Shown here in pieces: positions 1,848 to 64,000 of a stretch of 64,000 nucleotides of DNA. The DNA comes from Clostridiales bacterium (lineage in GTDB: Bacteria; Bacillota; Clostridia; Oscillospirales; CAG-272), in NCBI GenBank assembly GCA_003150035.1, contig QALR01000013.1, forward strand, positions 12,690 through 76,689, given 5' to 3'. A program made the translations under genes and the position numbers. The notes beneath the pieces are model-generated. The model made no database searches. It saw nothing but the letters and a program-made list of their open reading frames with translations, and was not told the DNA's origin. Position 1 is the first letter of the stretch. Every line of letters starts with the position of its first letter.

Positions 1848-1850
1848 AGA

Positions 1851-1889
1851 AAGTCCGCTGTCACAGTTTTTGTGGCAGCGGACTTTTTT
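1851..1889. terminator. bidirectional rho-independent terminator between convergent mgtE and the phosphoesterase gene
   Basis: The arm aagtccgctgtcac pairs with gtggcagcggactt (one G-U) and is followed by a T-run. Confidence 0.65.
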
Positions 1890-1912
1890 GCGGGAGACAA
1901 GGTCCCCGCAGT

Positions 1913-2776: not shown

Positions 2777-2806
2777 AAAAATCCTTCTAAAAAAATATTG
2801 AAAAAA

Positions 2807-3622: not shown

Positions 3623-3807
3623 GGCAAGACCTCCTTTCAGAATTTTGGCCCCGTCTTTTTTTCGTCGTCAAGAATCACCGCAAGGATGAGCACGCCGACC
3701 AATAGACATGACGGCGGACAGAGCGTAACGGACAGACGGGTAAGGGTCCATGTTCCAAACGGCTCCGACGAGCCAGTCTGACACGGTGTATGCCGCGGCA
3801 AAGAGCC

Positions 3808-22736: not shown

Positions 22737-24023
22737 TTATTCGTTTATAAGTGAAACAATCCAACGAATCCAACCTTTAATGCTTGAGGAACGGCGAACA
22801 AAAGTACTGTCGCTTTCAACCTGATAAAGCTCTGATTGCTTCATAATATTAACTATTTCACTTGTTGACGGCATAACGCCATTTTGTAGATACAGGCGCA
22901 ATGAAGCATTAAAAGCCCTATGTGACAATATGATATTACAATATGCTAATTGCCGTTGCTTAAATCCTAAATTAAGTATGCGTCTCCCAGTGTCACTTAT
23001 CGAATACAGCGGATTTCCGCTTTCTTTTCTTTTTTCAAGCAATCCCAGATAGCGTGCCGCGTCCGTATAATAGTTTGTTTGTCTTGAATCAAAATCATAT
23101 CTTTCAGTTACGTCTGTCCGGCTTAATTCCTGTGCGCTGACAAGTTCACAAAGATTGATAACTCTTTCAAAGTTATCTGCTTGTGGAAACGGCACCTTAG
23201 GTTCAACAGCAATAACAGCATTTTCCAAAACCGACTGAATATCAGAAACTGAAATTGCTGTATCTTCAATAGAATAATTTCTTTGTTTTACCAGCCTTAA
23301 TGAATTATAATGATTAGGGTCATCAAATGTATATTCAAAAAGCCGATATATACCGTTAGAATATATAAGGAAAATAGGCCTTACGGGTTTCGTTACACGA
23401 CTTTGCCATACGCGGAACGGATAATATAGCTGTCTTATCAAAAAATCTTCTGCAAGATCCAGCTTTGCTTCAAATATCGCCAAAGAAGAAACCCCTTCAT
23501 AGGCTGCATCTATTTCAATTTGTGAATTATTTACATCAACTTTTCGAACGGAACCTGTTTTTGTGTCGCCAATATTGAAAGAAAATGTACCTGAACCCAT
23601 ACGCCCCGAAACAGTAGAAACAATGTCGCTATCATCCATAAATTCCGAAATTATTCCTGAATCAGCGGCGCAATTCAAAGCGATTGCTTCACTTGGAATA
23701 TTGTTGCTATCCAAACTTTGAATATAAGTGGGTAAAGATACCTTGGTTATAGGTGAGCTATCCACTTCAAATTTATGGTATGCATCAAAATGCGAAATAA
23801 TATAATCACCGCGTGTTACAGGCAAAATAGCTAATTGATTATCTGCGAACAATTTGGGCAAGTTTGTTGTATGGTCAAATTTTACCATTAACCGTGGTTC
23901 ACGAAATTCTTTTATTTGTGTAGCGGAGATATTAAAAAATCCGTCGCTTCCAATATAACGCAAAATGTCGTATTTGTTAAACAGTTGTTCCCATGCTACA
24001 TCATTCAAACTTGCATTACTCAT
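22737..24023 (-). CDS. putative type II restriction endonuclease (PD-(D/E)XK core plus a C-terminal helical/wHTH-like domain)
   Basis: The candidate catalytic segment IEIDAAYEGVSSLAIFEAKLD fits a D...ExK pattern. It overlaps the methyltransferase stop by 8 nt (ATGAGTAA). AT-rich. Confidence 0.55.
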   Translation of the reverse strand: MSNASLNDVAWEQLFNKYDILRYIGSDGFFNISATQIKEFREPRLMVKFDHTTNLPKLFADNQLAILPVTRGDYIISHFDAYHKFEVDSSPITKVSLPTYIQSLDSNNIPSEAIALNCAADSGIISEFMDDSDIVSTVSGRMGSGTFSFNIGDTKTGSVRKVDVNNSQIEIDAAYEGVSSLAIFEAKLDLAEDFLIRQLYYPFRVWQSRVTKPVRPIFLIYSNGIYRLFEYTFDDPNHYNSLRLVKQRNYSIEDTAISVSDIQSVLENAVIAVEPKVPFPQADNFERVINLCELVSAQELSRTDVTERYDFDSRQTNYYTDAARYLGLLEKRKESGNPLYSISDTGRRILNLGFKQRQLAYCNIILSHRAFNASLRLYLQNGVMPSTSEIVNIMKQSELYQVESDSTFVRRSSSIKGWIRWIVSLINE

Positions 24024-24852
24024 AATTTCTCACCACAACTTCATCAACATCTCCGCGCTTGCTACCAACAGAATTGATAGCGCGTTTAGCCTGTACTATG
24101 GTAATATTGTATGCTGCATACTGTTCCAGAATAAAAGGTGTAGCTGAATTTGAAAGCATAAACTTGATACCGCGTTTGTTCAAATTATCGCAATATTGAC
24201 GCAGGCGCACTTGGTCCTCTTTAGAAAAACCGCCTTTTGAATATCCAGTAAAGCTTGATGTTTCCGATATTGGGTCATACGGGGGATCAAGATACACAAA
24301 TGTACCTTTTTTTATATTCGCTAAAACTTCCCCATAATCTACACATGAAAAATAAACTGTTGCCGCGTTGAAATAAGCACTTACTGCACGCAACACAGGC
24401 TCATTTACAATGTTTGGATTTCGATAATGGCCAAACGGAGAATTAAATTCTCCTGCATTATTAACACGATAAAGCCCGTTGTAACAGGTTTTATTCAAAT
24501 ATAAAATACGTGCTGCCCGTTCAACTGCTGATAAAGAACTGTACTTTTTTTTATCCCTGTCCCAATCGCGAACAGCATAGAAAAAATCCGAATCATTTTT
24601 ATATTGTTTAAGTTCCTCTATCAACTCATCAACACTATCCTTTATAACCGTGTAGACACAAAGCAAATCTGTGTTAATATCATTAACATAGGCTATATTA
24701 GGTTGCAAATGAAACAGAAGCGCCCCGCCGCCGACAAATGGTTCACAATACGATGTAATTTTCTTTGGTAACAACGGCGAAAAAGTTTCAATAAGTTGTC
24801 TTTTGCCGCCTACCCATTTCAAAACAGGCGCGACAAGCTTGTTTTTCTTCAT
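24016..24852 (-). CDS. D12-class (Dam-like) N6-adenine DNA methyltransferase
   Basis: KWVGGKRQL, FVGGGA and DPPY motifs. The start was set at MKKNK (24852), which has AAGGAG upstream. Confidence 0.85.
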   Translation of the reverse strand: MKKNKLVAPVLKWVGGKRQLIETFSPLLPKKITSYCEPFVGGGALLFHLQPNIAYVNDINTDLLCVYTVIKDSVDELIEELKQYKNDSDFFYAVRDWDRDKKKYSSLSAVERAARILYLNKTCYNGLYRVNNAGEFNSPFGHYRNPNIVNEPVLRAVSAYFNAATVYFSCVDYGEVLANIKKGTFVYLDPPYDPISETSSFTGYSKGGFSKEDQVRLRQYCDNLNKRGIKFMLSNSATPFILEQYAAYNITIVQAKRAINSVGSKRGDVDEVVVRNYE

Positions 24853-25169
24853 AGTAGGCGAAGCTCCTTTCCTTAAGACACAACAATTCATAGTTTATTG
24901 TAGCACAAGTTACACGCAAACTCAATAGAGAATTCCTGATTTTTTACGGTATCTTTCGGTATCGGCTTGCAGATTTAAGCGACAAATGAGCATAAAAAAC
25001 GGAGGAAGCTCCTATTTTACAAGGGTTCCTGCCGTTCCCTATATTCTCCTTCTCAAAGATGCTTTTTATTACATTGTTCCGCCAAATTCCTTCCTTGGCC
25101 GGCGTTAGCTTTTCTCTTTTTTCATTTCGAAAAAATTTTTTGCAGCGAAGGAAAGATGTACGCCGGCGC

Positions 25170-52437: not shown

Positions 52438-53380
52438 CGTTTGTGCCGATATTGAGAATCGGGAGGGTGCCGCCTTCACCGCCGACGTAGGTCGGCAACT
52501 TGCCGTCCCATTTTTCAACATATTTGTATTCAATCAGGTCAGAAGACAGGCTGTCCCCGATTTTCGCGTTTGCTTCCGCTTCTTTTTCTCCGGCGTACGC
52601 CCTTGCGTCTGCTTCGATCTTTTGTACTTCCGCAGCGGCTTCCGCCTCAATGACGGCGCGCTCAGCAGCGGCTTCTGCCTCCAGAATGGCCTGCTCCTGC
52701 TCAATCTGCGCCTTCAGCTTATTCTGTTCGGCGACCTGTTTTGCCTCTACCGCATCGGTGTATGTATCGGAAAAATCGAGGTTTTCAATCGAGGCGTCAA
52801 TGACCTCAATGTTATAGGCTGCAAGCTTTTCGACCAGAATCGCTTTGATTTCGGAGGAAAGCTGTTCCCGGCTGGCAATCAGACTTTCTGCATTATATTT
52901 GGCGATGACGCTTTTTACAGATTCCTGAACTCTCGGTTCAATGACGGTGGAATAGTAGTCCTTGCCAATGGTTCTGTAAATGGTTTGAGCGTTCGCCTTT
53001 TCAATCTGGTAGTTTAGGGTGTAGATGGTGGCGACCTCCTGAATATCGCTTGAAAAGCAGGAAAGCTCCACCATAGATTTCTGAATGCGGTTGTCCATTT
53101 TGATGACTTGCTGCCACGGCGCTTTTGCATGGATACCTGCCTCATAGGTGTAATCTTCCACGCGGCCGAAGGACGTAACGATGCCGGTATGTCCCGTTGG
53201 AATCGATGTTATGCAGCTAATAGAAATCAGCGCGATGCCAAGAACAAGACATGCGCCACAGGCGGCGCTGCCCGCTTTTTTCTTTTTCGGAAACATGCCG
53301 TTTTTGCATTTTTTCAGCACAGAAATAATGATTCCAATGCTAGCGACCAAAGCCAGAATGCCAATCACAAAAAGAAACAT
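52412..53380 (-). CDS. SPFH/band-7 (prohibitin-like) membrane protein
   Basis: N-terminal TM helix, SPFH core, and an Ala/Glu-rich coiled-coil. Confidence 0.8.
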   Translation of the reverse strand: MFLFVIGILALVASIGIIISVLKKCKNGMFPKKKKAGSAACGACLVLGIALISISCITSIPTGHTGIVTSFGRVEDYTYEAGIHAKAPWQQVIKMDNRIQKSMVELSCFSSDIQEVATIYTLNYQIEKANAQTIYRTIGKDYYSTVIEPRVQESVKSVIAKYNAESLIASREQLSSEIKAILVEKLAAYNIEVIDASIENLDFSDTYTDAVEAKQVAEQNKLKAQIEQEQAILEAEAAAERAVIEAEAAAEVQKIEADARAYAGEKEAEANAKIGDSLSSDLIEYKYVEKWDGKLPTYVGGEGGTLPILNIGTNDETAASNE

Positions 53381-53639
53381 AGAAACACTCCCATTCCGCC
53401 GTCTGACGCGGCTTTTGTATTTTAGAATATCAACGGTATCATTCTATCTTTTTTTCGCAGAGATGTCAAGACTTTTATGAACAGAAGCGCTTTTTAGAAA
53501 GATGGAAAAAAGTATTTTTCATTTATTCTCCAAGGGTTTTTAGTTCCTGTGTGTTTCTTTGTTTTCTGCTCTGATTTTGTATAACCTTCTCCTGCTTTGG
53601 GTAAAATAACCATATCAAAAAAAGAAAGGAATGCGAACT

Positions 53640-54893
53640 ATGAAAAAAGTCGGAATCACATTTTTCATCTTATGCATGCTTCTTTGTCTTGGCGTCTCGG
53701 CAAGTGCTGCCGGGCTTTTGTCGCCCGCTATCTCGGTCTTGCAGGAGGAGACCGCTATGATAAAAACGGGAGTGGGGACCAACTCGGTATCCTTTGATGC
53801 AGAGGATTTTACGGAACTGCTCGGCGATGAAGATTTCCTCGCCATCGAAATTACCTCGCTGCCGGAGGTATCGGATGGAGTTTTGAAGCTTGGGGCCGTC
53901 GACGTGACGCCGGGGCAGCTCATTTCGTATGAGGCGCTCGCGGCACTCCGGTTTATTCCGGCGCAGGAGGGAGCGGTTGCCACATTTCAGTTCAAGCCGT
54001 ATGGAGACCGTTATGAAAATTCCTTTGTCTGCACCGTCTGTATGCTGGATGCCTTAAATTTTGCTCCGACGGCAGCCGCGACGGAGCTTGACGCAAAAGA
54101 ATCGATACCGGTGTACGCGACTTTGTCGGCGGAGGATCCAGAGGGGGATGCCGTGACGTATGTCATTGTAGAAAAACCGAAAAAGGGAACGTTGAAGCTT
54201 ACGGATGAAATCGCCGGCAGCTATTGTTATACGGCGGACGAGGGTACGGCAGGGAAGGACTCCTTCACGTATATTGTCGTGGATGCCTATGGAAACCAGT
54301 CGGAACCTGCGACGGTGAATATTGCAACAACGGAAAATGGGACGGGAATCCTTTATACGGACCTTGCGGGCAGTGAATATCAGCTTCCGGCGGTGGCAAT
54401 GGCGGAAATGGGGGTCATTGTCGGAGAACAGATTGGCGATGAGAGATTCTTTTATCCGGACAAAACCGTTTCCAGATCCGATTTTCTCATCATGGCAATG
54501 AACGCGATGGGAATCGATCCTACCCTGATTGCAGCGGATGAATCCGGCTTTGCCGACAGTGCTTCTTTTACGGAGTATCAGAATGAATATATTTCCGCGG
54601 CCGCAGGGCTGTCGCTTGTTGTCGGAATCGATACGGAGGACGGCCGATGCTTCCTGCCGAACGAGGCGATTACGTCTGCGCAGGCGGCAACGCTCATCAG
54701 CAGGATTGCGGCCATGGAAGAGTTGCCGTTTGGCGACGCTGTTTATGCCTGCGTCGGAACGGATGACGAAATATCAGACGATGGGTATGCGATGCTGGCG
54801 TCCGTCGGGCTTGCCTTGTCTGAGGACAGGGATGTCCGGCTGACGCGGGCGGATACGGTTTCTTTGCTTTATACACTGACCTGTATGCAATAG
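53640..54893 (+). CDS. secreted Ig/cadherin-like repeat protein with three C-terminal SLH-like repeats
   Basis: Signal peptide. DSFTYIVVDAYGNQSEPATV looks like a cadherin-like/VCBS module. Three degenerate SLH repeats at the C-terminus. Confidence 0.55.
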   Translation: MKKVGITFFILCMLLCLGVSASAAGLLSPAISVLQEETAMIKTGVGTNSVSFDAEDFTELLGDEDFLAIEITSLPEVSDGVLKLGAVDVTPGQLISYEALAALRFIPAQEGAVATFQFKPYGDRYENSFVCTVCMLDALNFAPTAAATELDAKESIPVYATLSAEDPEGDAVTYVIVEKPKKGTLKLTDEIAGSYCYTADEGTAGKDSFTYIVVDAYGNQSEPATVNIATTENGTGILYTDLAGSEYQLPAVAMAEMGVIVGEQIGDERFFYPDKTVSRSDFLIMAMNAMGIDPTLIAADESGFADSASFTEYQNEYISAAAGLSLVVGIDTEDGRCFLPNEAITSAQAATLISRIAAMEELPFGDAVYACVGTDDEISDDGYAMLASVGLALSEDRDVRLTRADTVSLLYTLTCMQ

Positions 54894-54910
54894 GAGGAAA
54901 GGGAGGTAAA

Positions 54911-54940
54911 CGGGAAATCCTTCGGGATTTCCCGTTTTTT
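54911..54940 (+). terminator. rho-independent terminator
   Basis: cgggaaatcc-ttcg-ggatttcccg followed by T6. Confidence 0.8.
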
Positions 54941-54952
54941 CTCGCAATCATC

Positions 54953-54982
54953 TTGACAAGAGGTTTTTCGTCATGCTATAAT
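54953..54982 (+). promoter_or_regulatory. sigma-A promoter of tRNA-Gln
   Basis: TTGACA, 18 nt, TATAAT with an extended -10 TGc. The tRNA 5' end lies 22 nt downstream. Confidence 0.6.
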
Positions 54983-55004
54983 AAATCCGCTTTCATATGG
55001 ATAT

Positions 55005-55082
55005 TGGGATATAGCCAAGTTGGTTAAGGCACAAGACTTTGACTCTTGCACTCCGCTGGTTCGAGTCCAGCTATCCCAGCCA
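55005..55082 (+). tRNA. tRNA-Gln (anticodon UUG), CCA encoded
   Basis: Hand fold: acceptor TGGGATA/TATCCCA, D arm GCC..GGC, anticodon stem CAAGA/TCTTG with loop CTTTGAC, T arm GCTGG-TTCGAGT-CCAGC, discriminator G, CCA. The variable region appears to be 6 nt. Confidence 0.85.
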
Positions 55083-55098
55083 TCATGAGTGTCTGATT

Positions 55099-55532
55099 TA
55101 GATGCAGGCACGAAAAAACGAGAAAAGCGGAGATTTCGAGAGATTTCTCCGCTTTTTTCGACTCTGAAGTTTTTCGAAATTTTGTAGATGCATTTCGGGC
55201 ATTTCGGGTCTGTAGACAGATTCGAACCGGCGAAATGCATTTTTTGATATAGATTCCCCACAGAAGCAAAACCGTGGACAGATTCGAACCGCCACACACT
55301 TTCCGAAGCCTTTCAAAAATCCTTCCCGTTCAAAATTTATTTACAAAGCCATAGATGCAACGACGTTTTGGACAGATTTGAACTACCACACTACTCCACC
55401 TGCCGAAAACAAGGTGAATCCAAAAAAGATGCAATTTCAGTTTGGATAGATTCGAACCACCACATTGCTTCAAAAGCAATGTAAAACGCAAATACAAAAT
55501 AGCTCCATCGTTTCAATGGACAGATCCGAACT
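55099..55532. repeat. array of five degenerate direct repeats (core TGGACAGATTCGAAC) with a companion TAGATGCA box
   Basis: Cores at 55213, 55275, 55369, 55443 and 55517. Boxes at 55099, 55185, 55352 and 55426. No credible coding potential. Confidence 0.75.
55123..55158 (+). terminator. rho-independent terminator after tRNA-Gln
   Basis: aaaagcggaga / tctccgctttt stem followed by a T-run. Confidence 0.7.
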
Positions 55533-55561
55533 ATCGAAAACCAAATACTGACCTGCTGAAG

Positions 55562-55596
55562 ACAAAGAAAAAGCCACGGATCATAAAACCCGTGGC
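55562..55596 (-). terminator. minus-strand terminator-like hairpin
   Basis: gccacgg / ccgtggc stem with a 10-nt loop, followed on the minus strand by tttttctttg. Confidence 0.4.
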
Positions 55597-55712
55597 AAAA
55601 TATTTATCTCCCCGACAAACAGTAACAGGTTTATCGATGAGATAATTATATCACAAAACCGAGAACAAGTAAACCTATATCCTGTAAACAATCGTAAATA
55701 TTCTTTCTACAT

Positions 55713-55749
55713 AGCCAAATGCTTATCAGCCAAGCGTTTGGCTTTTTTT
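55713..55749 (+). terminator. plus-strand rho-independent terminator or attenuator 22 nt upstream of the first island gene
   Basis: 10-bp stem agccaaatgc / gcgtttggct (one G-U) followed by T7. Confidence 0.7.
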
Positions 55750-55771
55750 ATTGCAGAAAGGATGATAACAG

Positions 55772-56644
55772 ATGAATGCAATTATCTCAAAGGGCGACAA
55801 AACTGCTCACGTTCAACTCCCCGTAGAACGAAAACAGTTGGCTGGCGCTCTCTCGTATTTGGGAGCAAATCATACTTCCGATTACGACCTCAAATATAAT
55901 GAGGAAAACAAAGACGGACTCAAGGTTTCGCTGGAATGCTTCGGTGTCGTAGAAAACGCAATTGCCAAGGCTCTTCCCGTTGGCTTCCGTTTTCACACGC
56001 TCAATGAGTCACTCACCTTGATGGGCAACCTCCCCTATCAGAACAGACGAGAGGTCGAAAACACAATCAAGGTTGATGGACTCGACTCCTATGAGCAACT
56101 CAACAGAATGCTGACCGAAGCCTATCCTCAGTCAGTTACAACCAAGTACTACTGTCCGCTGACCATTCAGGTTCATAGCCGAGATTGCTACGGTGACATC
56201 GATGAGGACGGCTATGAGGAAGATGCAGAGTTCGCAGCTCGGCACGAAGATCTGATTCGTCAGAAGATGTTGGAGTATAACGCCTATGATGAATGTAATA
56301 TGGCAGAATATTTCCACGGCAACAACGGTGTCTCCGAAAAGCTTCGTTCCGCTGATTGGGATTTTGAGCGCAGAAACGGTGAGCTCTACGGATGTATCAC
56401 CGTGCAGACCGCAGGCCCCCTCACAGAGGACGAGGAACAGGATCTCAAGGACTGGATCTCCGGTCAGAACTCGGACGGTCTCGGCGAAGGATTTGAGCAG
56501 AGAGAGATCTACCTTGACGGCACTCGTTACGGTGGCTTTATGTATGTGAGCCTTTGGAACTCCGGTGACGATTATTATATCGACAACCAAGACGAGTTCG
56601 AGGATCGCCTCATGTCGGACGGCATGACGATGGGTGGGATGTAA
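55772..56644 (+). CDS. island hypothetical protein, acidic, G-M-T-M-G-G-M tail
   Basis: 290-aa ORF. Its stop overlaps the next ATG (TAATG). Confidence 0.6.
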   Translation: MNAIISKGDKTAHVQLPVERKQLAGALSYLGANHTSDYDLKYNEENKDGLKVSLECFGVVENAIAKALPVGFRFHTLNESLTLMGNLPYQNRREVENTIKVDGLDSYEQLNRMLTEAYPQSVTTKYYCPLTIQVHSRDCYGDIDEDGYEEDAEFAARHEDLIRQKMLEYNAYDECNMAEYFHGNNGVSEKLRSADWDFERRNGELYGCITVQTAGPLTEDEEQDLKDWISGQNSDGLGEGFEQREIYLDGTRYGGFMYVSLWNSGDDYYIDNQDEFEDRLMSDGMTMGGM

Positions 56645-56988
56645 TGGCTCTTCTGTTCTCCCACGTTCGTGTTTCAACTCCCGATGGCAACGAAGCGGAA
56701 TTCCTCGTCAGCGGTATTCCCAGAGAATTTGATGACTTCGAATACTACACAGCATTCGAAGATTTCCTTGATGGCATTGAGGAAGACCCCGAAATCAGCG
56801 TACACGCTGAAGCCTATCTTTACGGCGAAGGTGAAACCTTCAAGGCATCCATTGAGGAAGTGGCATACTTCCATCTACGAATGCAAAATGATGAGAGATT
56901 CCTCTCTGGTCATTGCGACAATATCGAATCTGTTGACTTCACCTGCAACTACTCTCCCGATGAACTCTTCGGGATGGATTGGGGGTGA
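56644..56988 (+). CDS. island small, very acidic protein
   Basis: 114 aa. Hand count gives 27 Asp/Glu against 5 Lys/Arg. Confidence 0.6.
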   Translation: MALLFSHVRVSTPDGNEAEFLVSGIPREFDDFEYYTAFEDFLDGIEEDPEISVHAEAYLYGEGETFKASIEEVAYFHLRMQNDERFLSGHCDNIESVDFTCNYSPDELFGMDWG

Positions 56989-56990
56989 GT

Positions 56991-57329
56991 ATGACAGAAA
57001 ACTACTACGATGTACTCCTTGGCTTTTCGGACGAGCTGGATGATAAGAGTACAGAACTTTACAGTGTGAAAGAAGTGGCTGACTTCATTCATACTCACGG
57101 TGGCGGTTATATCACCGAAACAGATGGCACTCCACTACTTCAGATTGCATACGGTAATTATTTTGAAATTAGCGAAGAAAGTGATTTCTATAGCGATATC
57201 GAAGATAATACCTTACGCAATGAGGGCGAGGGTATGTGCTTCGTCTTCTGCAATGATATGCGTTACAAATACGCACTCATGGCAGAACTCCGCAAAGGCG
57301 AAGGCTTTGAGGACCGATATCAATGGTAA
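56991..57329 (+). CDS. island small acidic protein
   Basis: 112 aa from the ATG at 56991, which has GGGGGTGA upstream. 25 Asp/Glu against 8 Lys/Arg. Confidence 0.6.
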   Translation: MTENYYDVLLGFSDELDDKSTELYSVKEVADFIHTHGGGYITETDGTPLLQIAYGNYFEISEESDFYSDIEDNTLRNEGEGMCFVFCNDMRYKYALMAELRKGEGFEDRYQW

Positions 57330-57345
57330 GGAAAGAGGTGAACCA

Positions 57346-57606
57346 ATGAACTATTTTGATAAGAACGGCAACCAGATCAAGGCAGGTATGGATATCCGCA
57401 TGGCAGACGGCAGCTTCGAGCGAGTCTATGAAACCACCGACGCCTATGGAAATCCCGACCTTGGTATCAACGCATCCAACGAGGAATATCTCGAAAGACA
57501 TCCCTATGCCAGCCGAGAGTATTACTCCCTCTGCAATTTCGACATGAGCGAGGTTGAGATCGTCGATCAGATGGAACTGCCCGGAATGTCCATGGGTGGG
57601 ATGTGA
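57346..57606 (+). CDS. island small acidic protein, G-M-S-M-G-G-M tail
   Basis: 86 aa. AAGAGGTG lies upstream. 16 Asp/Glu against 6 Lys/Arg. Confidence 0.6.
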   Translation: MNYFDKNGNQIKAGMDIRMADGSFERVYETTDAYGNPDLGINASNEEYLERHPYASREYYSLCNFDMSEVEIVDQMELPGMSMGGM

Positions 57607-58358
57607 GAAAGCATATGGTAAATAGGAAAGAAACCAATCTCGACGGTGTCAAGGCAATGGCACGAACACTGCTTTACACCGACATCAATAAAACAGCCTA
57701 TTCGCCCATAGTCGTTCAGCATCCCTTCACCAACACAGGTATCACTATGGTGATGAGAAACGGCGAACCGCAATGCATTGACATTACAGCAGACAGCAAT
57801 GCTCTGCATGAATGGCGCAAGATGGTTTGTCAGCAGATCGATTCCTCCAAGAGCGCGTTTGAAATCTATATGATGACGAACAAGCCTTACGGAATGACGT
57901 TCCTCAAATACGCAGCTCATCACCTGTCCAAGAAGGATTTCTCACAGATCCTTGCGGATGCATGGATACGTTCAGAGAATCCGAATGACGATCCCAACCT
58001 GCCTCAAGCCAAGCTCCTATCGTTGTTTCAATCGGCAGAGCCACGGCATCTGATGTCCCAAGACGAACTGAATACGCTGAATGATCTTGACTCCACGGTA
58101 ACCGTTTATCGTGGCGTTACTTCATTTAACGCTAAAAACGTTAAGGCTCTCTCGTGGACATTGGACAGAAGCGTTGCCGAGTGGTTCGCAACACGGTTCG
58201 ATGAAGACGGCACGGTGTATCAGGCTCGGATCGATAAACCGCACATTTATGCCTATTTCGATGGCAGAAACGAGTCCGAAGTTATTGTGGATCCGAAATA
58301 TCTGATGGATATCACGGAATCCGAATCGATGGATAACTCCTTCGATATCACTATGTAA
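57603..58358 (+). CDS. island protein with C-terminal R-S-E ADP-ribosyltransferase-like motifs (candidate); start at GTG 57603 or ATG 57615
   Basis: VYRG ... LSWTLDRSVAEWFA ... NESEVIV occur in the order expected for YRG / STS / ExE motifs. Confidence 0.35.
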   Translation: MRKHMVNRKETNLDGVKAMARTLLYTDINKTAYSPIVVQHPFTNTGITMVMRNGEPQCIDITADSNALHEWRKMVCQQIDSSKSAFEIYMMTNKPYGMTFLKYAAHHLSKKDFSQILADAWIRSENPNDDPNLPQAKLLSLFQSAEPRHLMSQDELNTLNDLDSTVTVYRGVTSFNAKNVKALSWTLDRSVAEWFATRFDEDGTVYQARIDKPHIYAYFDGRNESEVIVDPKYLMDITESESMDNSFDITM

Positions 58359-58375
58359 GAAAGGAGATCAAGCTA

Positions 58376-58789
58376 TTGACCTTTTTTGAAAAAGAGCTTC
58401 ACAGGCTCTTTGACGATTCTGAATGTATTTCGGCTGATGCGGTTTTCGCTGGGAAGACAATGATTGCTCCTATCGGTGAAGATTTAAGAGCCAAGGTACA
58501 ATTCGTCTACACGAATACCCACGCAAAGTATGATGCCTTGCGGCTGACCATCATCAACCGCCACGAAGGTACGGTGGATAGCGAAACCTTCAAGTTCAAG
58601 GATATCATCGGTATGAAGGGCGGCCGTGAACCCCATATATGGGAAGACGGCCAAAGGGTTGACTGGTATATCTATCATCCAACCGCATCCGATTACAACT
58701 TCATTACCGATGTTGTTGAGGACTATATCTCCATGTACGCCGACCAAGCATATCGCTTTGACGGTGGAATGGCCATGGGAGGCATGTAA
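58376..58789 (+). CDS. island hypothetical protein, G-M-A-M-G-G-M tail
   Basis: 137 aa. TTG start 8 nt after AAAGGAG. Confidence 0.55.
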   Translation: MTFFEKELHRLFDDSECISADAVFAGKTMIAPIGEDLRAKVQFVYTNTHAKYDALRLTIINRHEGTVDSETFKFKDIIGMKGGREPHIWEDGQRVDWYIYHPTASDYNFITDVVEDYISMYADQAYRFDGGMAMGGM

Positions 58790-59553
58790 TGGAATATTCC
58801 TTCAGCCAATTGAGCAACATCGCCAAGAGCTTGCGAGAACGCTATCCCATAGGCACTCGCATCAAACTCATCAGTATGGGAGATGATCCACGTCCGATTC
58901 CGCCCGGAACCAAAGGCACGGTTGAGGGTATCGATGACATTGCTACCGTCTTCTGCAGGTTCGACAACGGCAGAAGCCTCGGTTTGGCATACGGAGAGGA
59001 TCATTACAGAGCCTTAACGCAAGCCGAGCTTCTCGAAGAAAAGTGCGCACGGAATTACGACAAGTATTACGAGGCCGTCCACCGAGATATCTTTGCGGAT
59101 GTAGACCTTGACCGCTTCGCCGAGGAAATCGAGAATGCGAATGACAACTACACCACCGAGATTTTGGGGCAGCTTCACGATAAGTTCGTCGAGATTTATG
59201 ACACCGACAGTGTCGATGGTCTCGTCGGATTCATCCAAGTACCTGCTATCGTCGAATCCCTTCAGACAGGTGACTACTATCCTGCCCTTGTAACACTCGA
59301 CTTGGACTCCTCCGGAGAACATTGGGGTACGTGCGTTATGACACCGACAGGCGTAATTGACCACGGTGTAACGGAAGAAACCGAAGCAGAAAAAGCCTTC
59401 ATGCAGAATCTTGTGCCGTACCGATACTGGTACACAGTAAATTGCGAGAGCGACATCCATGTGGATATGGCAGAGTGTCCCGAAGATATTTGGGATATCA
59501 TCTCCGCAGCCACAGGACAGACGTTTGAGCAGAACGGAGGTATGAGCCTCTGA
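58789..59553 (+). CDS. island protein with a DUF4314-like N-terminal domain
   Basis: The segment GTRIKLISMGDDPRPIPPGTKGTVEGIDDIATVFCRFDNGRSLGLAYGED matches my recollection of the DUF4314 signature. Confidence 0.5.
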   Translation: MEYSFSQLSNIAKSLRERYPIGTRIKLISMGDDPRPIPPGTKGTVEGIDDIATVFCRFDNGRSLGLAYGEDHYRALTQAELLEEKCARNYDKYYEAVHRDIFADVDLDRFAEEIENANDNYTTEILGQLHDKFVEIYDTDSVDGLVGFIQVPAIVESLQTGDYYPALVTLDLDSSGEHWGTCVMTPTGVIDHGVTEETEAEKAFMQNLVPYRYWYTVNCESDIHVDMAECPEDIWDIISAATGQTFEQNGGMSL

Positions 59554-59570
59554 GTAATCAAATCAAATAT

Positions 59571-60845
59571 TTGGACATGTTCGCCGGCATTGGTGGGTTC
59601 AGATCAGGACTCTCCAAGTTCGGCGATTTTTTTGTCCCCGTAGGATTTTGCGAGATAGATCCCTATGCTCGACGAGCCTACGAAGCAATCTATGACACGA
59701 AAGGAGAACTATTTTTTGAAGACGCAAGAAAGATCGTCCCCGAAGAACTGCCGGATATCGACCTTATTTGCGGCGGATTCCCTTGCCAAAGCTTTTCTAT
59801 TGCTGGAAAGCGAGGGGGCTTTGAAGACGCCAGAGGAACTTTGTTCTTTGAAATCGCTCGGATTGCCCGAGTTAAAAGACCTAAGTATCTGCTCCTTGAA
59901 AACGTTCCCGGACTCCTATCGCATGACAGCGGCAGGACGTTTGCGACCATCCTCAATGCGCTTTCAGAATTGGGGTACAATGTCGCATGGCAGGTGCTTA
60001 ACAGCGCGAATTTTGGAGTACCCCAAGCCCGAAAAAGAGTGTTTCTTATCTGCTATCTTGGAGAAGAATGCCCCGGAGAGATACTATCTTTCACCGACGC
60101 AAATCCAAAAACTATTGTTCAAAAGCTCGGTGGCAGACAAGGCGACCGAGTCTATGACCAAGACGGACTGAGTTGCACTCTGACGAGCAACGGCGGCGGT
60201 TTCGCTGGAAATACAGGTCTCTACTCCGTAGGACAGCTTCCCATCAAATCCTTGACCAAATCGGGCTATCAGATTGCCGAACCCGGCGACAGCATTGATT
60301 TGGCATATCCGAACTTGAACACCCGACGAGGTAGAGTCGGCAAACAGATCGCACACACGATCACGCCGAATATCACGCAGGGTGTTTATTTTATCGATAT
60401 GAACCCCGAACCCAAGATCACCGAGCTTGCCCGTTGCATTACTGCCCGACAGGATGCAGGTATCAGCAACCGTAAGGGTGAGCATTCCGGTGTCTTGGAA
60501 AAGGCAGAAGAAGGACCAAGAGCAGTCCTCACTCCCGATCGAGAAACCATTCGACAGCAAGGCAGACGAATGAAGGATCCCGAAGAACCCATGTTTACGC
60601 TCACCACGCAAGACCTGCACGGTGTAGCAGATAACGACAAGATCCGAAAGCTCATGCCCATTGAGTGCTGGCGATTGCAAGGATTCACGGACGAGCAATT
60701 CCACAAAGCACAATCCGCAGGTCTCTCCGATGCAAGACTCTACAAGATGGCAGGTAATGCGGTAAGCGTACCTGTTATCACTGCCCTCGGTGAGATTATT
60801 AAGCGAGTCCACGAGAACTCGCAGAAGGAGGCCGATAATGGCTAA
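59571..60845 (+). CDS. DNA (cytosine-5)-methyltransferase, orphan (true start probably upstream, e.g. CTG 59550)
   Basis: Motifs FAGIGG (I), GGFPCQSFS (IV), ENV (VI), QARKRV (VIII) and GNAVSVPV (X). Confidence 0.88.
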   Translation: MDMFAGIGGFRSGLSKFGDFFVPVGFCEIDPYARRAYEAIYDTKGELFFEDARKIVPEELPDIDLICGGFPCQSFSIAGKRGGFEDARGTLFFEIARIARVKRPKYLLLENVPGLLSHDSGRTFATILNALSELGYNVAWQVLNSANFGVPQARKRVFLICYLGEECPGEILSFTDANPKTIVQKLGGRQGDRVYDQDGLSCTLTSNGGGFAGNTGLYSVGQLPIKSLTKSGYQIAEPGDSIDLAYPNLNTRRGRVGKQIAHTITPNITQGVYFIDMNPEPKITELARCITARQDAGISNRKGEHSGVLEKAEEGPRAVLTPDRETIRQQGRRMKDPEEPMFTLTTQDLHGVADNDKIRKLMPIECWRLQGFTDEQFHKAQSAGLSDARLYKMAGNAVSVPVITALGEIIKRVHENSQKEADNG

Positions 60846-61647
60846 TAATGTCACAAACAAGTTGAGATTCGATAAATGCTCCAAGGAACGGTGTCGTGAA
60901 ATACTCGAAGCGATTCAGATTGATAGAATCGGCCTTGGTTCAATCGATTTCAACAAAATCATTCCCGAGCCTTATTTTCCGTCAGATCAAGATTGTATCA
61001 ATTGGCGAATCAAGAATTGGGATACAAAATGGGAAGCTTACGGTTACCGTGACGGAATTCAGTATGATGAGGACAAGAATGAAATTAGCTTCCTTACTGC
61101 AAACAGATCGGCAAGAAAAATCATTATTGCACTCTCCCGACAATATCCCGATGTTTTATTCGAACTGCGATACGCTGACGAGAATTTCGGTTACAACGTG
61201 GGAGAAATCAGCATTATGGCAGGTGAAGACTTCGATGGAAGAATCCCGAAGGATAACACCTATGAAGCACAGGAGCTTGCCGCAGATGTAATGGGCAAGA
61301 AACTCGCCTTCGATATCGAATCCGCTTCGGGTTACGTTCGCAAGATCGATGCGAATCTGTACGAATACTGTGAAGGTGTTCACGTCTCGCAATCATTCCA
61401 ATGTGATCAGTCACTCGGACATCCCGTAGTCCTATGCTATGACTTTGACAACAGCAAGGTGTGGCTTGAAATGTATCCTCTGCTTGATGAAGATGACGAT
61501 ATGTATGAAGATATCAAGAACAGCATTCAAGCATGGGGCATCCATCCCTGTGAATCATGGGATGACTTCAACAGCTACGTTCAATGCCTTGGTGAGGATG
61601 CCATGGAAGCAGCCTACTACGATGAAGGGGGGATGACAATGTGCTGA
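60838..61647 (+). CDS. Api92/DUF1281-like ferredoxin-fold protein
   Basis: N-terminus MANNVTNKLRF and FNKIIPEP ... NWDTKWEA motifs. GAAGGAGG lies upstream. Overlaps the C5 methyltransferase gene by 8 nt. Confidence 0.5.
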   Translation: MANNVTNKLRFDKCSKERCREILEAIQIDRIGLGSIDFNKIIPEPYFPSDQDCINWRIKNWDTKWEAYGYRDGIQYDEDKNEISFLTANRSARKIIIALSRQYPDVLFELRYADENFGYNVGEISIMAGEDFDGRIPKDNTYEAQELAADVMGKKLAFDIESASGYVRKIDANLYEYCEGVHVSQSFQCDQSLGHPVVLCYDFDNSKVWLEMYPLLDEDDDMYEDIKNSIQAWGIHPCESWDDFNSYVQCLGEDAMEAAYYDEGGMTMC

Positions 61648-61724
61648 CCTTCTTTATCGGTCTGTTTGTTGGCGGCATCGTGGGAGTAGTCACGATGTGC
61701 CTCTTTCAGATCAACCGCAAATAA
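61641..61724 (+). CDS. candidate 27-aa hydrophobic micro-protein (not in the ORF track)
   Basis: GTG start 8 nt after GGGGGG. Translation MLTFFIGLFVGGIVGVVTMCLFQINRK gives one TM helix with a basic C-terminus. Confidence 0.35.
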   Translation: MLTFFIGLFVGGIVGVVTMCLFQINRK

Positions 61725-61805
61725 CAAATAAACAATAAGGTCGTTTTGCAAAAGAAAAGCAAGACGGCCTTTTCTTTTTGCAATTCGGTCTTGGAAAGGA
61801 TCCGA

Positions 61806-62678
61806 ATGAACAGTTTTATGTCGTGGGTAGGCGGCAAAAAAGCCTTGCGAGATGCAATCGTAACAAGGCTACCAAACTCCTGCGACAGATACGTTGAAGT
61901 GTTCGGCGGTGGCGGTTGGGTGCTCTTTCATAAGACACCCGGCAAATTCGAAGTATACAACGACTTCAACCCCAATCTTGCAAACCTGTACAGGTGTGTG
62001 AGAGATCATCCCGACGAGCTCTGCGAAGAACTCCGATACTCTCTGAACTCAAGGACAGACTTTGAGCATATCCGAGAGGTACTCAAAAGCAAGACCGCTA
62101 TCCCCGACATCAAACGTGCCGCCTACTTCTATCAGATCATCCGAGAAAGCTACGCATCAGGACTCGACTCCTTCGGGGCGCAACCCCACAATATGTGGCG
62201 TAACTTTCCGCTGATCACTGAAGCATCCCGACGCTTGCAAAGCGTTGTGATAGAAAACAAGGACTTCGAAAAGCTCATTTCGCAGTATGACCGTCCCAAC
62301 ACCATCTTCTACCTCGATCCTCCTTACTATGAAACCGAGGACTATTACGAGGATGTAGGCTTCGGACGAGCCGACCACGAAAGGCTTTGCAATGCCTTAA
62401 TGAAGATCAAAGGCAAATTCCTTCTCTCGTACAATGACTGCCCCGAAATTCGGGAGCTGTACTCCAAAGAAGGAATCATGATCGAGTCCACCACACGCAT
62501 CTCGAATATTGCCCAACGGTTTGATGCCGGAAAGCAATATCCCGAATTGCTTATTTCCAACTATGACACCCATGAGGAAGGAATCCTCTCAAGACAACTC
62601 ACACTCTTCGACGATTTCGAAGAATCAGAAAAAATATTAAAGGAGCACAAGATTATATGGAAATCAAATGTAAAATAA
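61806..62678 (+). CDS. D12-class N6-adenine DNA methyltransferase, orphan
   Basis: SWVGGKKAL, FGGGG and DPPYY motifs. The start was set at MNSFMSW. Confidence 0.85.
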   Translation: MNSFMSWVGGKKALRDAIVTRLPNSCDRYVEVFGGGGWVLFHKTPGKFEVYNDFNPNLANLYRCVRDHPDELCEELRYSLNSRTDFEHIREVLKSKTAIPDIKRAAYFYQIIRESYASGLDSFGAQPHNMWRNFPLITEASRRLQSVVIENKDFEKLISQYDRPNTIFYLDPPYYETEDYYEDVGFGRADHERLCNALMKIKGKFLLSYNDCPEIRELYSKEGIMIESTTRISNIAQRFDAGKQYPELLISNYDTHEEGILSRQLTLFDDFEESEKILKEHKIIWKSNVK

Positions 62679-62899
62679 CTTTTTCTCTCCCCAAAGACCT
62701 CATGGAGGCTCTTGACATCAACGATGACACTCCTGTCATCGCTTCCATCTCGGATGGTCGGATCACGGTAGAAATCGTCGATGACGAGGATGAGTACACC
62801 GAGGATGACCTCTACGACGAGGACGATGGCGACTGTGAGGACGGTTGTGAGCATTGCGAATACTTCTGCCCCCACTGTGGCAAGTGTGTTCTCAACTGA
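62657..62899 (+). CDS. AbrB/SpoVT-fold-like protein with a poly-acidic linker and a six-Cys cluster
   Basis: N-terminus ITFSLPKDLMEALDINDDTPVIASISDGRITVEIV, then DDEDEYTEDDLYDEDDGD, then C-x3-C-x2-C-x3-C-x2-C-x2-C. Confidence 0.5.
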   Translation: MEIKCKITFSLPKDLMEALDINDDTPVIASISDGRITVEIVDDEDEYTEDDLYDEDDGDCEDGCEHCEYFCPHCGKCVLN

Positions 62900-62914
62900 C
62901 CAGAGGTGACCGCC

Positions 62915-63196
62915 ATGAACAAGATCTACAGACTCATCGGCAAAGAAGGCCGAACCACCATTCCTTTCGACATTCGTCTCAAGATGCGCATCGGCTACAA
63001 CAGCCTCCTCTCCTATGAGATGAAGGACGAAAACACCATCATCCTCCGCCGTGAGAAGGTCTGCGACCACTGCAGCGACCACGGTGTCAAGGAAGGTTCT
63101 ATCCTTGACGTGGTCAACAGCCTCACCGAAACCGAGCAGAAGGCTCTCCACAGATACCTCTCCATCAAGCTCTCCACGGGCAAGGAGCATCGATAA
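62915..63196 (+). CDS. AbrB/SpoVT-fold DNA-binding protein
   Basis: GRTTIPFDIRLKMRIGYNSLLSYEMKDENTIILR. AGAGGTGA lies upstream. Confidence 0.55.
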   Translation: MNKIYRLIGKEGRTTIPFDIRLKMRIGYNSLLSYEMKDENTIILRREKVCDHCSDHGVKEGSILDVVNSLTETEQKALHRYLSIKLSTGKEHR

Positions 63197-63921
63197 TGCC
63201 TGTACCGTTATATCGCTACTCCTTCCGTGAAGCCAAGGAGCACGACGAAATACAGGAATGGAAGCAGTCCCATGCGGAAAACATCCGCTGCCGAGATGCA
63301 ATCGACAAGATGGTATCGGAACGGTACAGCAACAATATCATGCCGAACAACATCATCAAGGATGCATGTGCCGAGTTTGGTATTGACCGTGTAGGATGGG
63401 TGTTAGCCACAACCGTCAGCGAAAACAGCAACGATGGCAGATACCGACCGGATACCCGTCGTTGGTCGATGCAAGCCTTCTATATTCCCAACGACTCACG
63501 CAATCATGAAATCGAGCTTCGAACTCACCCCGAACTGGTCAACGGCATGGTTGGACAGTACAGAAAATACCTGTCCGAGGAACTCGGAATCCTGTCCAAA
63601 GAAGCATGCCTTCCCAACAGCAACGGTGAGGACTATACCGAAAAGCTTCTCATCTTGCACACAGACGCTCTTGCGGAAGATTACAAGAAAGGCGAATATC
63701 AATACTTTTATGCCAACGGTGGAAACGGTTGCCGTCCCACCTCTCTTGGTCGCAAGATCTTCGGCTTCTTCCTTTCCGATGGCGAGAAAACACAGTTCGT
63801 CCGTGGAGATTTCATCGGCATTGCAGATCCCGAACAGGTTCCCGATTGGGTGAACGAAAACCTTGAAAAATACTTGCACGGACAGGAAAATACAGAAGAC
63901 GGAGGTATGAAACTCGAATGA
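63196..63921 (+). CDS. DUF3849-domain protein
   Basis: The segments YRYSFREAKEHDEIQEWKQSHAENIRCRDAI ... RVGWVLATTV ... THPELVNG fit my recollection of the DUF3849 pattern. Confidence 0.65.
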   Translation: MPVPLYRYSFREAKEHDEIQEWKQSHAENIRCRDAIDKMVSERYSNNIMPNNIIKDACAEFGIDRVGWVLATTVSENSNDGRYRPDTRRWSMQAFYIPNDSRNHEIELRTHPELVNGMVGQYRKYLSEELGILSKEACLPNSNGEDYTEKLLILHTDALAEDYKKGEYQYFYANGGNGCRPTSLGRKIFGFFLSDGEKTQFVRGDFIGIADPEQVPDWVNENLEKYLHGQENTEDGGMKLE

Positions 63922-64000
63922 GAATCAATATCTATCAGATCGATGGTGACAAGGACACCAACAGAGTCAAGTTCGACAGCTATCACCGTACCCTTGAAAA
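63918..64000 (+). CDS. YodL-like domain protein, 3' end outside the window
   Basis: MRINIYQIDGDKDTNRVKFDSY resembles the YodL-domain N-terminus. The ATG overlaps the upstream stop (ATGA). Confidence 0.4.
   Translation, partial: MRINIYQIDGDKDTNRVKFDSYHRTLE

Follow-up and report, generated by a model that had tools for sequence, protein, structure and literature searches.

A probable integrative and conjugative element with a putative establishment gene train at the tRNA-Gln(UUG) gene of a Clostridiales bacterium

The right-hand end of a 64,000-nt stretch of DNA from an uncultured gut Clostridiales bacterium of the CAG-272 lineage (contig QALR01000013.1, positions 12,690 to 76,689; hereafter the window, numbered from its first letter) carries, downstream of a tRNA-Gln(UUG) gene, a train of 14 closely spaced genes. 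We conclude that this region is very probably the left end of an ICE (integrative and conjugative element), integrated in a site-specific manner at the tRNA gene's 3' end and bearing the train as an establishment and anti-defence module. Judged by its sequence, it is an ICE whose relaxosome is pLS20-like and whose type IV secretion system (T4SS) is of the Firmicutes (Gram-positive) type, and it belongs to a family abundant in gut Clostridia. An ICE is expected biology for gut Clostridia and an ordinary kind of mobile DNA; the less expected feature is a Tad-like pilus cluster inside it, which is unusual for Gram-positive bacteria.

Conjugation genes and the boundary at tRNA-Gln

The conjugation machinery was found outside the window, on a 129.9-kb metagenome contig from the same site (ENA ERZ28573864 scaffold_325, from which L001, L011, L155 and L158 derive; L-numbers denote compared sequences). 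Over 53196-64000, a span that takes in the tRNA flank and the Band_7 and Big_9 genes, its identity to the window is 99.889%; a further contig matches 56381-64000 at 100%. We read the same-site contig to the window equivalent of 104.6 kb, that is, through 49.6 kb of the element, with ~13 kb of contig lying beyond, and genes past the window end are given in window-equivalent coordinates (Table 1). The element is at least 49.6 kb long and forms one long gene array, nearly all on the plus strand, in which a VirB4-type ATPase, the coupling protein VirD4 and the relaxase MobL, the hallmark machinery of an ICE, are all present; the conjugation genes seen on this contig are all full length. In tblastn searches, MobL was ~30% identical, over its N-terminal 60%, to Bacillus conjugative plasmid genes annotated as 'MobP3 family relaxase'. 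A preliminary description of the window had anticipated one end of an element whose relaxase, T4SS and recombinase would lie beyond position 64000, and had proposed extending the contig to find them together with a repeat of the junction. The extension bore out the relaxase, VirD4 and the VirB4-like ATPase on DNA 99.9% identical to the window, but yielded neither a recombinase nor a second junction repeat in the 49.6 kb.

The left junction could be placed, to the base, at 55082/55083, the 3' end of tRNA-Gln(UUG), which is the attachment point and the chromosomal side of attL. Conspecific contigs (L021, L023, L025 and L026) are 99-100% identical to the window until 55082/55083 and diverge after it, the four same-species contigs used for the boundary encode an identical 417-aa Big_9 protein, and further contigs break off within 55131-55214, as expected for a polymorphic junction. 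Directly past the junction lies a terminal sequence that we call the A-type end, which occurs once in the window against 0 expected by chance and is found 4 nt past tRNA-Gln in 24 of 25 loci in genomes of other species, although the tRNA-Gln sequences and neighbouring genes differ among those loci. Its 19-mer is the inverted copy of the terminal 19-mer of a conserved 'B module' that, in other genomes, closes the units nearby. When species-representative genomes were scanned for this 19-mer, there were at least 120 stretches compared to ~17 expected by chance and, among the matches listed, almost all came from gut Clostridia, Oscillospiraceae or 'Eubacteriales' metagenome-assembled genomes from humans and ruminants. 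The A-type end together with the repeat array described below (the ICE-type left end) adjoins the genome's own tRNA-Gln in L034, L058, L104, L122 and L130. Since the point of conspecific divergence coincides with an A-type end that follows tRNA-Gln across species, we set the element start at 55083. An Rfam scan of 54800-64000 matched the tRNA alone.

Inside the junction, the hairpin at 55119-55160 has been kept together with the A-type end across species, and is thus read as part of the element end that would now terminate the tRNA-Gln transcript. Five direct repeats follow, with start-to-start spacings of 62, 94, 74 and 74 nt (a degenerate pattern gave 4 matches versus 0.00 expected); each has an (A)TAGATGCA-like word just before it, and the array recurs at the same offsets in L104, L122, L022 and L002. 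These repeats are candidate protein-binding sites. On the minus strand they read GGTTCGAATCTGTCC and resemble the tRNA T-loop; tRNA remnants were considered and rejected, for although the repeats have GGTTCGAATC in common with the T-loop, a T-arm cannot form. In L117, the sequence beside repeat 1 runs straight into the 3' half of tRNA-Gln.

Between the equivalents of 55579 and 55630 the window is empty where other copies hold minus-strand genes: a 500-bp insert with a 137-aa gene in L002, MerR, GNAT, methyltransferase and DUF998 genes in L007, and an aminoglycoside nucleotidyltransferase-like gene in L014. Homology picks up again at 55630 in all three. The latter position was ruled out as the element boundary by L104, L002 and L022, which put the repeats and the A-type end inside the element, L104 joining tRNA-Gln, A-type end, repeats and L007-type minus-strand cargo on one contig; on these alignments, 55579/55630 appears as an internal cargo slot. 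The segment that follows (55630-55771) is conserved whatever cargo lies upstream and is presumed to be the promoter/operator of a long operon. It holds a palindrome (I6, TGAGATAATTATATCA, 55638-55653) and, directly before the first ribosome-binding site, a hairpin (55713-55743) with a T-run; 55540-55780 folds as single-stranded DNA with z = -3.9, and no consensus sigma-70 site was found on the plus strand of 55630-55771.

Near the same site, L022 carries a small mobilisable element (475-3813, with a Mob_Pre relaxase and a 583-aa large serine recombinase) immediately upstream of Big_9. It occupies the place that the Band_7 gene has in other conspecific contigs, just upstream of the tRNA-Gln site.

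Gene train and pilus cluster

The train begins 690 nt past tRNA-Gln and runs over 55772-64000 as a series of plus-strand genes, 13 of them complete and the last one partial, with junctions of -1, +2, +16, +8, +17, -1, +23, -8, +98, -22, +15, -1 and -4 nt. The earlier count of about 15 ORFs (open reading frames) joined by overlaps of 1-8 nt or gaps under 20 nt was therefore approximately right, with gaps of 23 and 98 nt and a 22-nt overlap exceeding it. A drop in G+C had also been reported from hand counts, which are exact (43.3%, 45.0% and 71.7%) but come from chosen lines: mean G+C is 48.3% over 55772-64000 versus 50.1% over 1-54900, a difference of 1.8 points, and the shift is no more than chance since 30% of same-sized windows elsewhere in the sequence are as low or lower; the maximum in 1-kb windows is 57.7%. 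The shift in codon choice, by comparison, held up, synonymous codon fractions differing from those of core genes by a mean absolute 0.109, against 0.042 +/- 0.007 (maximum 0.062) for random core gene sets of the same size. Pfam confirmed the domains named beforehand (DUF4314, C5 and D12 (N6) methyltransferases, DUF3849 and YodL), PADLOC agreed that the two methyltransferases are orphans in showing no restriction partner, and the small acidic proteins are indeed so, most train proteins being strongly acidic (D+E versus K+R of, for example, 55/26, 27/5, 25/8 and 25/5).

Six train proteins have recurring C-termini (MTMGGM, MSMGGM, MAMGGM, GGMSL, GGMTMC and GGMKLE, each before the stop), which arise because the Shine-Dalgarno sequence (GGAGG/GGGTGGG) and ATG of the next gene lie inside the last codons of the preceding one. 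This arrangement indicates that the train genes are translationally coupled, and since the DNA at these junctions is nearly identical, modules could also be shuffled by recombination there. Train variants differ at 57133-57249 and 58804-59026, and megablast of 55100-64000 against plasmid records and 50,697 phage records gave no match.

The first six products (290, 114, 112, 86, 247 and 137 aa) had no match in Pfam, NCBIfam or PDB; three train proteins and a 247-aa family profile, searched against PDB sequences, returned nothing meaningful, and a look-up of the exact 290-aa sequence gave no record. The 247-aa family counts 4507 representative relatives, with YRG, SWT and ExE motifs nearly invariant (at least 90% conserved across 81 members); single members have extra Pfam matches, ArdA weakly (E = 0.001), Amidoligase_2 and MobL more clearly. 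R-S-E ADP-ribosyltransferases combine the ART fold with a catalytic Arg, a Ser-x-Ser/Thr and a Glu-x-Glu motif, and the 247-aa protein resembles them in its conserved motifs, with no Pfam or PDB profile match to an ADP-ribosyltransferase for the family. The DUF4314 gene has a variant in L002 and L007 whose 182-aa product has no DUF4314 match in the precomputed Pfam annotation. The D12 methyltransferase, called as 310 or 290 aa on other contigs, likely starts at 61806, which gives 290 aa, and is 31% identical to the D12 methyltransferase of the host at 24016-24891. No recognisable restriction partner was found for either train methyltransferase by PADLOC, whose only matches in the train they are, and no nuclease adjoins them. 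The 80- and 93-aa proteins have sub-cut-off matches (MazE_antitoxin 0.0045 and 0.01; AbrB-family TIGR01439 2.8e-4) and may be regulators or resemble antitoxins in function; the 80-aa one is very acidic with a Cys-rich tail. The exact DUF3849 protein sequence occurs in 176 blocks of the collection index.

Elsewhere in the window, an island on the minus strand at 22737-24891 (G+C 37-41%) encodes a D12 N6-adenine methyltransferase (291 aa) and a 428-aa DUF6996/DUF6997/DUF7226 protein, probably a restriction-modification pair of the host.

How the train might act can be sketched from these assignments. As an establishment/anti-defence module, it would provide orphan C5 and N6 methyltransferases that pre-methylate the element DNA and allow it to survive restriction in the next host, the present host itself having a D12 methyltransferase and a putative nuclease. 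The small, very acidic proteins might mimic DNA or inhibit defence proteins, a host target might be modified by the 247-aa protein through its R-S-E-like motif, and the DUF3849, YodL and DUF4314 proteins would be stand-alone counterparts of domains fused elsewhere in polyvalent proteins. Translational coupling would lead to stoichiometric co-expression from a single promoter at 55630-55771.

Whether such products act in the donor or in the recipient bears on the description of the train as early-entry, anti-defence cargo. One alternative, which we regard as possible but somewhat doubtful, is that the train is made in the donor and not expressed from incoming DNA, its products (methyltransferases, the ART-like enzyme and acidic proteins) acting there by modifying the DNA beforehand or passing as proteins through the T4SS, a route proposed for polyvalent proteins. 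The DUF3849, YodL and DUF4314 families are reportedly typical of polyvalent proteins, which would fit this, although the train consists of separate ORFs with no fused polyvalent protein; its place as the first module after the only conserved upstream region (55630-55771), with later modules co-directional, fits as well. The order of entry can be estimated from pLS20, the type MobL system, in which an intergenic gap upstream of small genes and of the gene for the relaxase holds oriT (the origin of transfer), nicked on the template strand (PMC5313138). By this analogy, the place of oriT would be the 370-bp gap (L011 19759-20130), containing several inverted repeats, that precedes the 142-aa gene and mobL ~18 kb past the window end, and the transferred strand would be the template of the whole array. 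Entry would then start at DUF6103 and pass through the pentapeptide-protein gene, the T4SS genes, the adhesin gene and the pilus genes to the train, which would enter as roughly ORFs 23-36 from oriT and ~18-27 kb after the nick, so not as the first DNA in, and with a pLS20-like oriT (PMC5313138) this distance again favours donor expression. Its orientation nonetheless permits transcription from the entering strand as well if the nick is on the template strand: such transcription needs the transferred strand as template (PMC11541004), a plus-strand array would offer this by the same analogy, and the train could thus be transcribed early in the recipient. Orphan methyltransferases are a hallmark of leading regions (PMC11541004), and they and the acidic proteins are indeed present in the train, which by the pLS20 analogy is neither oriT-adjacent nor first; no ArdA, anti-CRISPR, PsiB or SSB gene was detected in it with Pfam, NCBIfam, PHROGs and PADLOC, only the orphan methyltransferases. 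The early-entry idea is supported in part, and a role of the train as early-entry anti-defence cargo is plausible. In the donor, moreover, the train is the module nearest the promoter, so that donor action (by pre-methylation or protein export) and early expression in the recipient are both plausible and need not exclude each other.

Between the train and the T4SS, a pilus cluster and a large adhesin occur in every full-length copy seen, other copies having Flg_new/DUF8195 adhesins of 1080-1328 aa in place of the 813-aa one. CpaB scored 75.9 bits against a TIGR03177 cut-off of 71, the pilus ATPase matches T2SSE, VirB11 and TadA models, each below cut-off, and the cluster includes a Peptidase_A24 prepilin peptidase. 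The DUF6133 76-aa proteins are candidate pilins, and proteins of 308 and 292 aa in the cluster had no profile matches. A complete Tad/Flp (type IVc) pilus would comprise CpaB, a TadA/CpaF ATPase, a prepilin peptidase, TadB/TadC platform proteins and an Flp pilin. By analogy with pili of other conjugative elements, pilus and adhesin presumably serve mating-pair formation.

Table 1. Features of the tRNA-Gln site, the element and related units. Positions refer to the window or, past 64000, to window-equivalent coordinates on the same-site contig, unless an L-number is given.
Feature	Position	Strand	Evidence or remark
tRNA-Gln(UUG), intact	55005-55082	+	ARAGORN; Rfam tRNA 63 bits
Element left terminus (A-type end): TCAT + GAGTGTCTGATTTAGATGC + AGGCACGA	55083-55113	+	
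Terminator-like hairpin (CGAGAAAAGCGGAGA / TCTCCGCTTTTTTCG) and T-run	55119-55160	+	Inverted repeat I3, 93% complementary
Five direct repeats, (T)GGACAGATTCGAACC	55212-55533	+	find_repeats family D2
Hairpin (55573-55596) and breakpoint of variable cargo slot	55573-55630	.	Terminator scan
Conserved region upstream of train, including ribosome-binding site	55630-55771	+	97-98% identity in L002, L007, L014
Six Pfam-less acidic genes (290, 114, 112, 86, 247, 137 aa)	55772-58789	+	
247-aa protein	57615-58358	+	PHROG 4776, 1.2e-34
254-aa protein, N-terminal DUF4314	58789-59553	+	PF14192, 1.9e-27
Orphan C5 cytosine DNA methyltransferase, 422 aa	59577-60845	+	PF00145, 3.6e-77; PADLOC MTase_II and oMTase
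269-aa protein, DUF1281_C (Api92-like ferredoxin-like)	60838-61647	+	PF18406, 1.1e-09; PHROG 12644, 4.2e-18
Orphan D12-class N6-adenine DNA methyltransferase (Dam-like)	61746-62678	+	PF02086, 8e-34
Two small AbrB/MazE-fold (SpoVT-AbrB-like) proteins, 80 and 93 aa	62657-63196	+	
DUF3849 protein, 241 aa	63196-63921	+	PF12960, 2.3e-33
YodL + DUF3846 protein, 234 aa in full, cut by window end	63918-64000	+	L001 10723-11427; PF14191 and PF12957
Train gene ends with GGM-type C-termini	56620-56646, 57585-57606, 58765-58791, 59535-59553, 61630-61647, 63900-63921		
SpoVG-like, DUF6133 small protein, Peptidase_A24	After YodL/DUF3846 (63.9 kb), in this order		
CpaB, MinD/ParA-like, TadA/VirB11-class ATPase, two ~300-aa proteins, DUF4320 and two small proteins	Next		CpaB: TIGR03177
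Tad/Flp-like pilus cluster and adhesin inside ICE	65.3-74.8 kb		L011 2873-9949 and 10001-12442
813-aa MucBP/DUF8195 adhesin	72.4-74.8 kb		Then DUF7768, DUF3852
TrbL_5 (TrbL/VirB6-like)	75.6 kb		11.6 kb past window end
VirB4-like ATPase	77.9-79.8 kb		13.9 kb past window end; NCBIfam VirB4_plasma 3.1e-93, CD1110 family 2.1e-49
DUF6329 + pentapeptide-repeat protein, DUF6103, 370-bp gap, 142-aa protein	After VirB4-like ATPase		
MobL relaxase	82.9-84.2 kb		18.9 kb past window end; PF18555, E <= 1e-5
DUF3991/Toprim, HTH_36	Between MobL and VirD4		
VirD4	85.7-87.5 kb		21.7 kb past window end; T4SS-DNA_transf, TrwB_AAD_bind and TraG-D_C domains
IS21 (istA/istB); cargo PP-binding, glyoxalase, NTP_transf_5; IS110 fragment	Past VirD4	- (cargo)	
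RiPP-like cluster: two 47-aa peptides, two radical-SAM/SPASM enzymes, two further proteins, ABC transporter	~97-104.6 kb		L158 70-7312
B module, examples	L023 3995-4152; L101 431-600		97 ends in L028-L147
Gut-1 copies, outside the window	L036 27-97, 2839-2908; L075 4156-4232, 5494-5563		Rfam RF01706

Integration, relatives and tandem units at tRNA-Gln

Integration modules differ among relatives of the element whose Toprim and VirD4 proteins are 86-98% identical: L014 has a large serine recombinase, L148 a PemK, Xis and tyrosine integrase set beside hemN/lepA, and L013 a Tn916-type Xis/Int, which shows that the family swaps integration modules. The L014 serine recombinase was tried as a partner of the B-type ends and is unsupported, with 0 tblastn matches near 97 such ends. 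The region after VirD4 is a cargo hot spot that differs among close relatives (L152 5492-12049, L153 7191-15252, L154 5018-14917), with YpsA and an HTH gene following it in L152 and L153. Its contents include Ssp-like phosphorothioation genes (PAPS_reduct, DUF4007, BrxC/PglY-like and cysteine desulfurase-like) and, in other cases, a set of DUF6079, N6_N4 methyltransferase and SNF2 genes or ricin-lectin/peptidase genes; the outer cargo of the present element looks, from its gene content, like a cluster for ribosomal-peptide (RiPP) biosynthesis. The outermost cargo protein had no match when scanned against JGI metagenomes and IMG/VR, and the IMG/VR relatives of VirD4 are distant and have no A or B end motifs.

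Several points weigh against reading the region as the end of a site-specifically inserted ICE with an anti-defence train. Neither an integrase or recombinase nor a right-end repeat lies within the 49.6 kb read, no second copy of the end motif was found there, and the copy, which also carries IS21 and an IS110 fragment, could be defective or reliant on a recombinase provided in trans. The alternative alleles at tRNA-Gln hold other units, none being a true empty site, and the G+C shift of the train is not significant. As to function, the train proteins matched no characterised anti-defence family (ArdA, Acr and others) in Pfam, NCBIfam, PHROGs, PADLOC or PDB, the ADP-ribosyltransferase reading of the 247-aa protein derives solely from motif conservation, single-sequence AlphaFold2 models of the 290- and 247-aa proteins were unusable (pLDDT, the model confidence score, of 36), and the position of oriT and the transferred strand are inferred by analogy.

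The missing recombinase, the IS21 inserted right after VirD4 and the IS110 fragment would suit a decaying island that is no longer self-transmissible, whether a former ICE now fixed beside tRNA-Gln or one mobilised only in trans, as would the metagenome variants L013 and L014 with their internal deletions and fused or truncated genes. We consider this unlikely, because every conjugation gene seen is full length, identical or near-identical copies occur in several samples, and copies 86-98% identical over the compared segments sit with other cargo beside the tRNA-Gln of other species; moreover, ~13 kb of contig past the last gene seen lies outside the part read. A prophage or phage-plasmid fragment is far less probable still. 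Four train proteins do match PHROG families, of which one is labelled an antitoxin and the rest are of unknown function, and VirD4 has relatives in IMG/VR contigs called viral, but capsid, terminase, tail and lysis genes are absent over ~50 kb, megablast gave no match in the 50,697 phage records, and VirB4, VirD4, TrbL and a relaxase are present.

Internal fusions and truncations in L013 and L014, among them an ORF that merges T2SSE with MobL and a shortened Dam gene running into the pilus genes, reflect either real deletion derivatives or assembly chimeras.

The same ends also occur in a wider setting, behind the tRNA-Gln genes of many further species of gut Clostridia and often within tandem arrays of small units. 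Most genome matches to the 19-mer are to its inverted form, which ends the B module, a segment of ~150 nt with the layout TACATAGG..GCAAGCATGGCG-hairpin-CCCATCATCGCCAAGGGGTTAGTGTACCCTCTGCAAAATC..GTGCATCTAAATC(AGCCACACACGGTTTTGCATCTAAATC)GGACACAC-NTCA-CA and one or two copies of GATTTAGATGC. Genes of the units that it closes are all oriented toward it, and its hairpin comes as two haplotypes that differ in four pairs, altered on either side (compensatory changes); the B module matched no Rfam family and has no recombinase nearby. Small units carry genes for XRE-TPR regulators, sigma factors, an ABC transporter, Abi-like proteins and S8 peptidases, and none has a recombinase, ORF clustering over 120 genome chunks having found no recurrent one. 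Tandem units join as ...GGACACAC GTCA CA TGAT GAGTGTC..., an imperfect palindrome of ~48 bp with a central CA, and the tRNA junction reads ...CCCAGC CA TCAT GAGTGTC.... What follows the CA is an A-type end, or a 92-nt segment and then an A-type end (exactly duplicated in L101), or a terminator followed by the Rfam RNA Gut-1 (RF01706; 52-91 bits versus a gathering score of 50) and an inverted Gut-1-like set. Gut-1 thus stands directly after tRNA-Gln and its terminator and again after the B module of each unit, often with an inverted Gut-1-like copy, and this recurrence links it to the tRNA-Gln insertion hot spot.

Large serine recombinases act on attachment sites that form a ~50-bp imperfect palindrome around a 2-bp crossover. 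The central dinucleotide and the symmetry of the junctions favour an enzyme of this class here; given the unrelated left ends, the repeat array and the lack of a recombinase near the ends, we leave the mechanism open. The right end of the element would read ...GCATCTAAATCGGACACAC-NTCA-CA, followed by host DNA that in this species is probably the 92-nt segment CCGGCAGTGCCGG....

These observations lead us to a tentative proposal, which we put forward as less likely than the ICE reading itself and, on balance, improbable: that the ICE is the autonomous member of an undescribed tRNA-Gln integration system of gut Oscillospiraceae/Clostridia, with pilus and adhesin acting as a Gram-positive conjugative pilus. 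In such a system, units may insert directly 3' of ...CA (from the tRNA CCA or the ...GTCACA of a prior unit), giving tandem arrays in which every unit may end in a structured ~150-nt B module and at least three unrelated kinds of left end may occur. Gut-1 would be part of a mobile-element end or att region and not a free-standing small RNA, and the recombinase-less small units with regulator, sigma factor, Abi-like and transporter genes would be mobilised in trans. Neither the array system, most of which lies outside the window, nor its link to Gut-1 appears to be described in the literature searched. Gut-1 was reported in 2010, solely from the human gut, and neither its organism nor its function was known (PMC2864571).

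Significance and comparison with known systems

The family architecture that emerges (establishment train, Tad-like pilus and adhesin, T4SS and MobL relaxosome, with two cargo hot spots for resistance-like, phosphorothioation (Ssp-like), BREX-like and RiPP-like genes) should be useful for annotating gut metagenomes and tracing gene flow. The attachment site at tRNA-Gln is precise across species, widely shared and little understood, and gives a genomic context to Gut-1, an orphan since 2010. Within the train, ~10 uncharacterised, highly conserved proteins form a compact set of anti-defence candidates, and a putative pilus machine in a Gram-positive conjugative element would run counter to the current textbook statement.

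Iyer, Burroughs, Anand, de Souza and Aravind are said to have described DUF3849, YodL and DUF4314 domains in 2017 as typical of polyvalent proteins. The train resembles such proteins in combining, within a conjugative element, modules of the DUF3849, YodL, DUF4314, methyltransferase and ART-like kinds, but does so as thirteen separate, translationally coupled ORFs of 80-422 aa with no giant fusion. Its likeness to the leading-region anti-defence islands of conjugative plasmids (Samuel et al. 2024, PMC11541004) lies in the orphan DNA methyltransferases, the many small uncharacterised genes and a uniform orientation compatible with the transferred strand as template; unlike in those islands, the train would occupy ORFs 23-36 from oriT by analogy, behind the T4SS and pilus genes, and no ssb, psiB, ardA or anti-CRISPR homologue was detected.

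The closest parallel in overall plan is pLS20 of Bacillus (MOB_L/RelLS20; PMC5313138, PMC8708921), which shares a MobL-family relaxase after a small gene and a ~370-bp gap, one very long co-directional conjugation operon with VirB4 and VirD4, and establishment genes carried on the element. pLS20 is a plasmid, however, whereas the element here is tRNA-integrated, its relaxase is ~30% identical over the N-terminal 60% only, its establishment genes form one tightly coupled train instead of several regulated operons, and it encodes a MucBP adhesin along with a Tad-like pilus cluster. Among Gram-negatives, IncI plasmids (the PilV pilus of R64/TP114) and PAPI-1 are known to carry accessory type IV pili (PMC9045228, PMC12857230), and Tad loci are known from Cutibacterium plasmids (PMC5696575). 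As in the Gram-negative cases, a pilus-class machine and an adhesin lie inside a conjugative element beside its T4SS; the machine here differs in being of a Tad/Flp-like class (CpaB, TadA-like ATPase and A24 peptidase), seen as genes only, and in a Gram-positive host.

Accretion of the ICESt1/ICESt3 type, in which ICEs and cis-mobilizable elements accumulate at the 3' end of a tRNA or other gene (reviewed with integrative and mobilizable elements in PMC5704250), likewise involves tandem units that have no recombination genes of their own and whose end sequences are also those of an ICE at the single attachment site. The ends at tRNA-Gln are nonetheless of another design, consisting of a 19-mer inverted repeat and a structured module of ~150 nt on one side only, and they combine with at least three unrelated left-end types, one of which carries the Gut-1 RNA.

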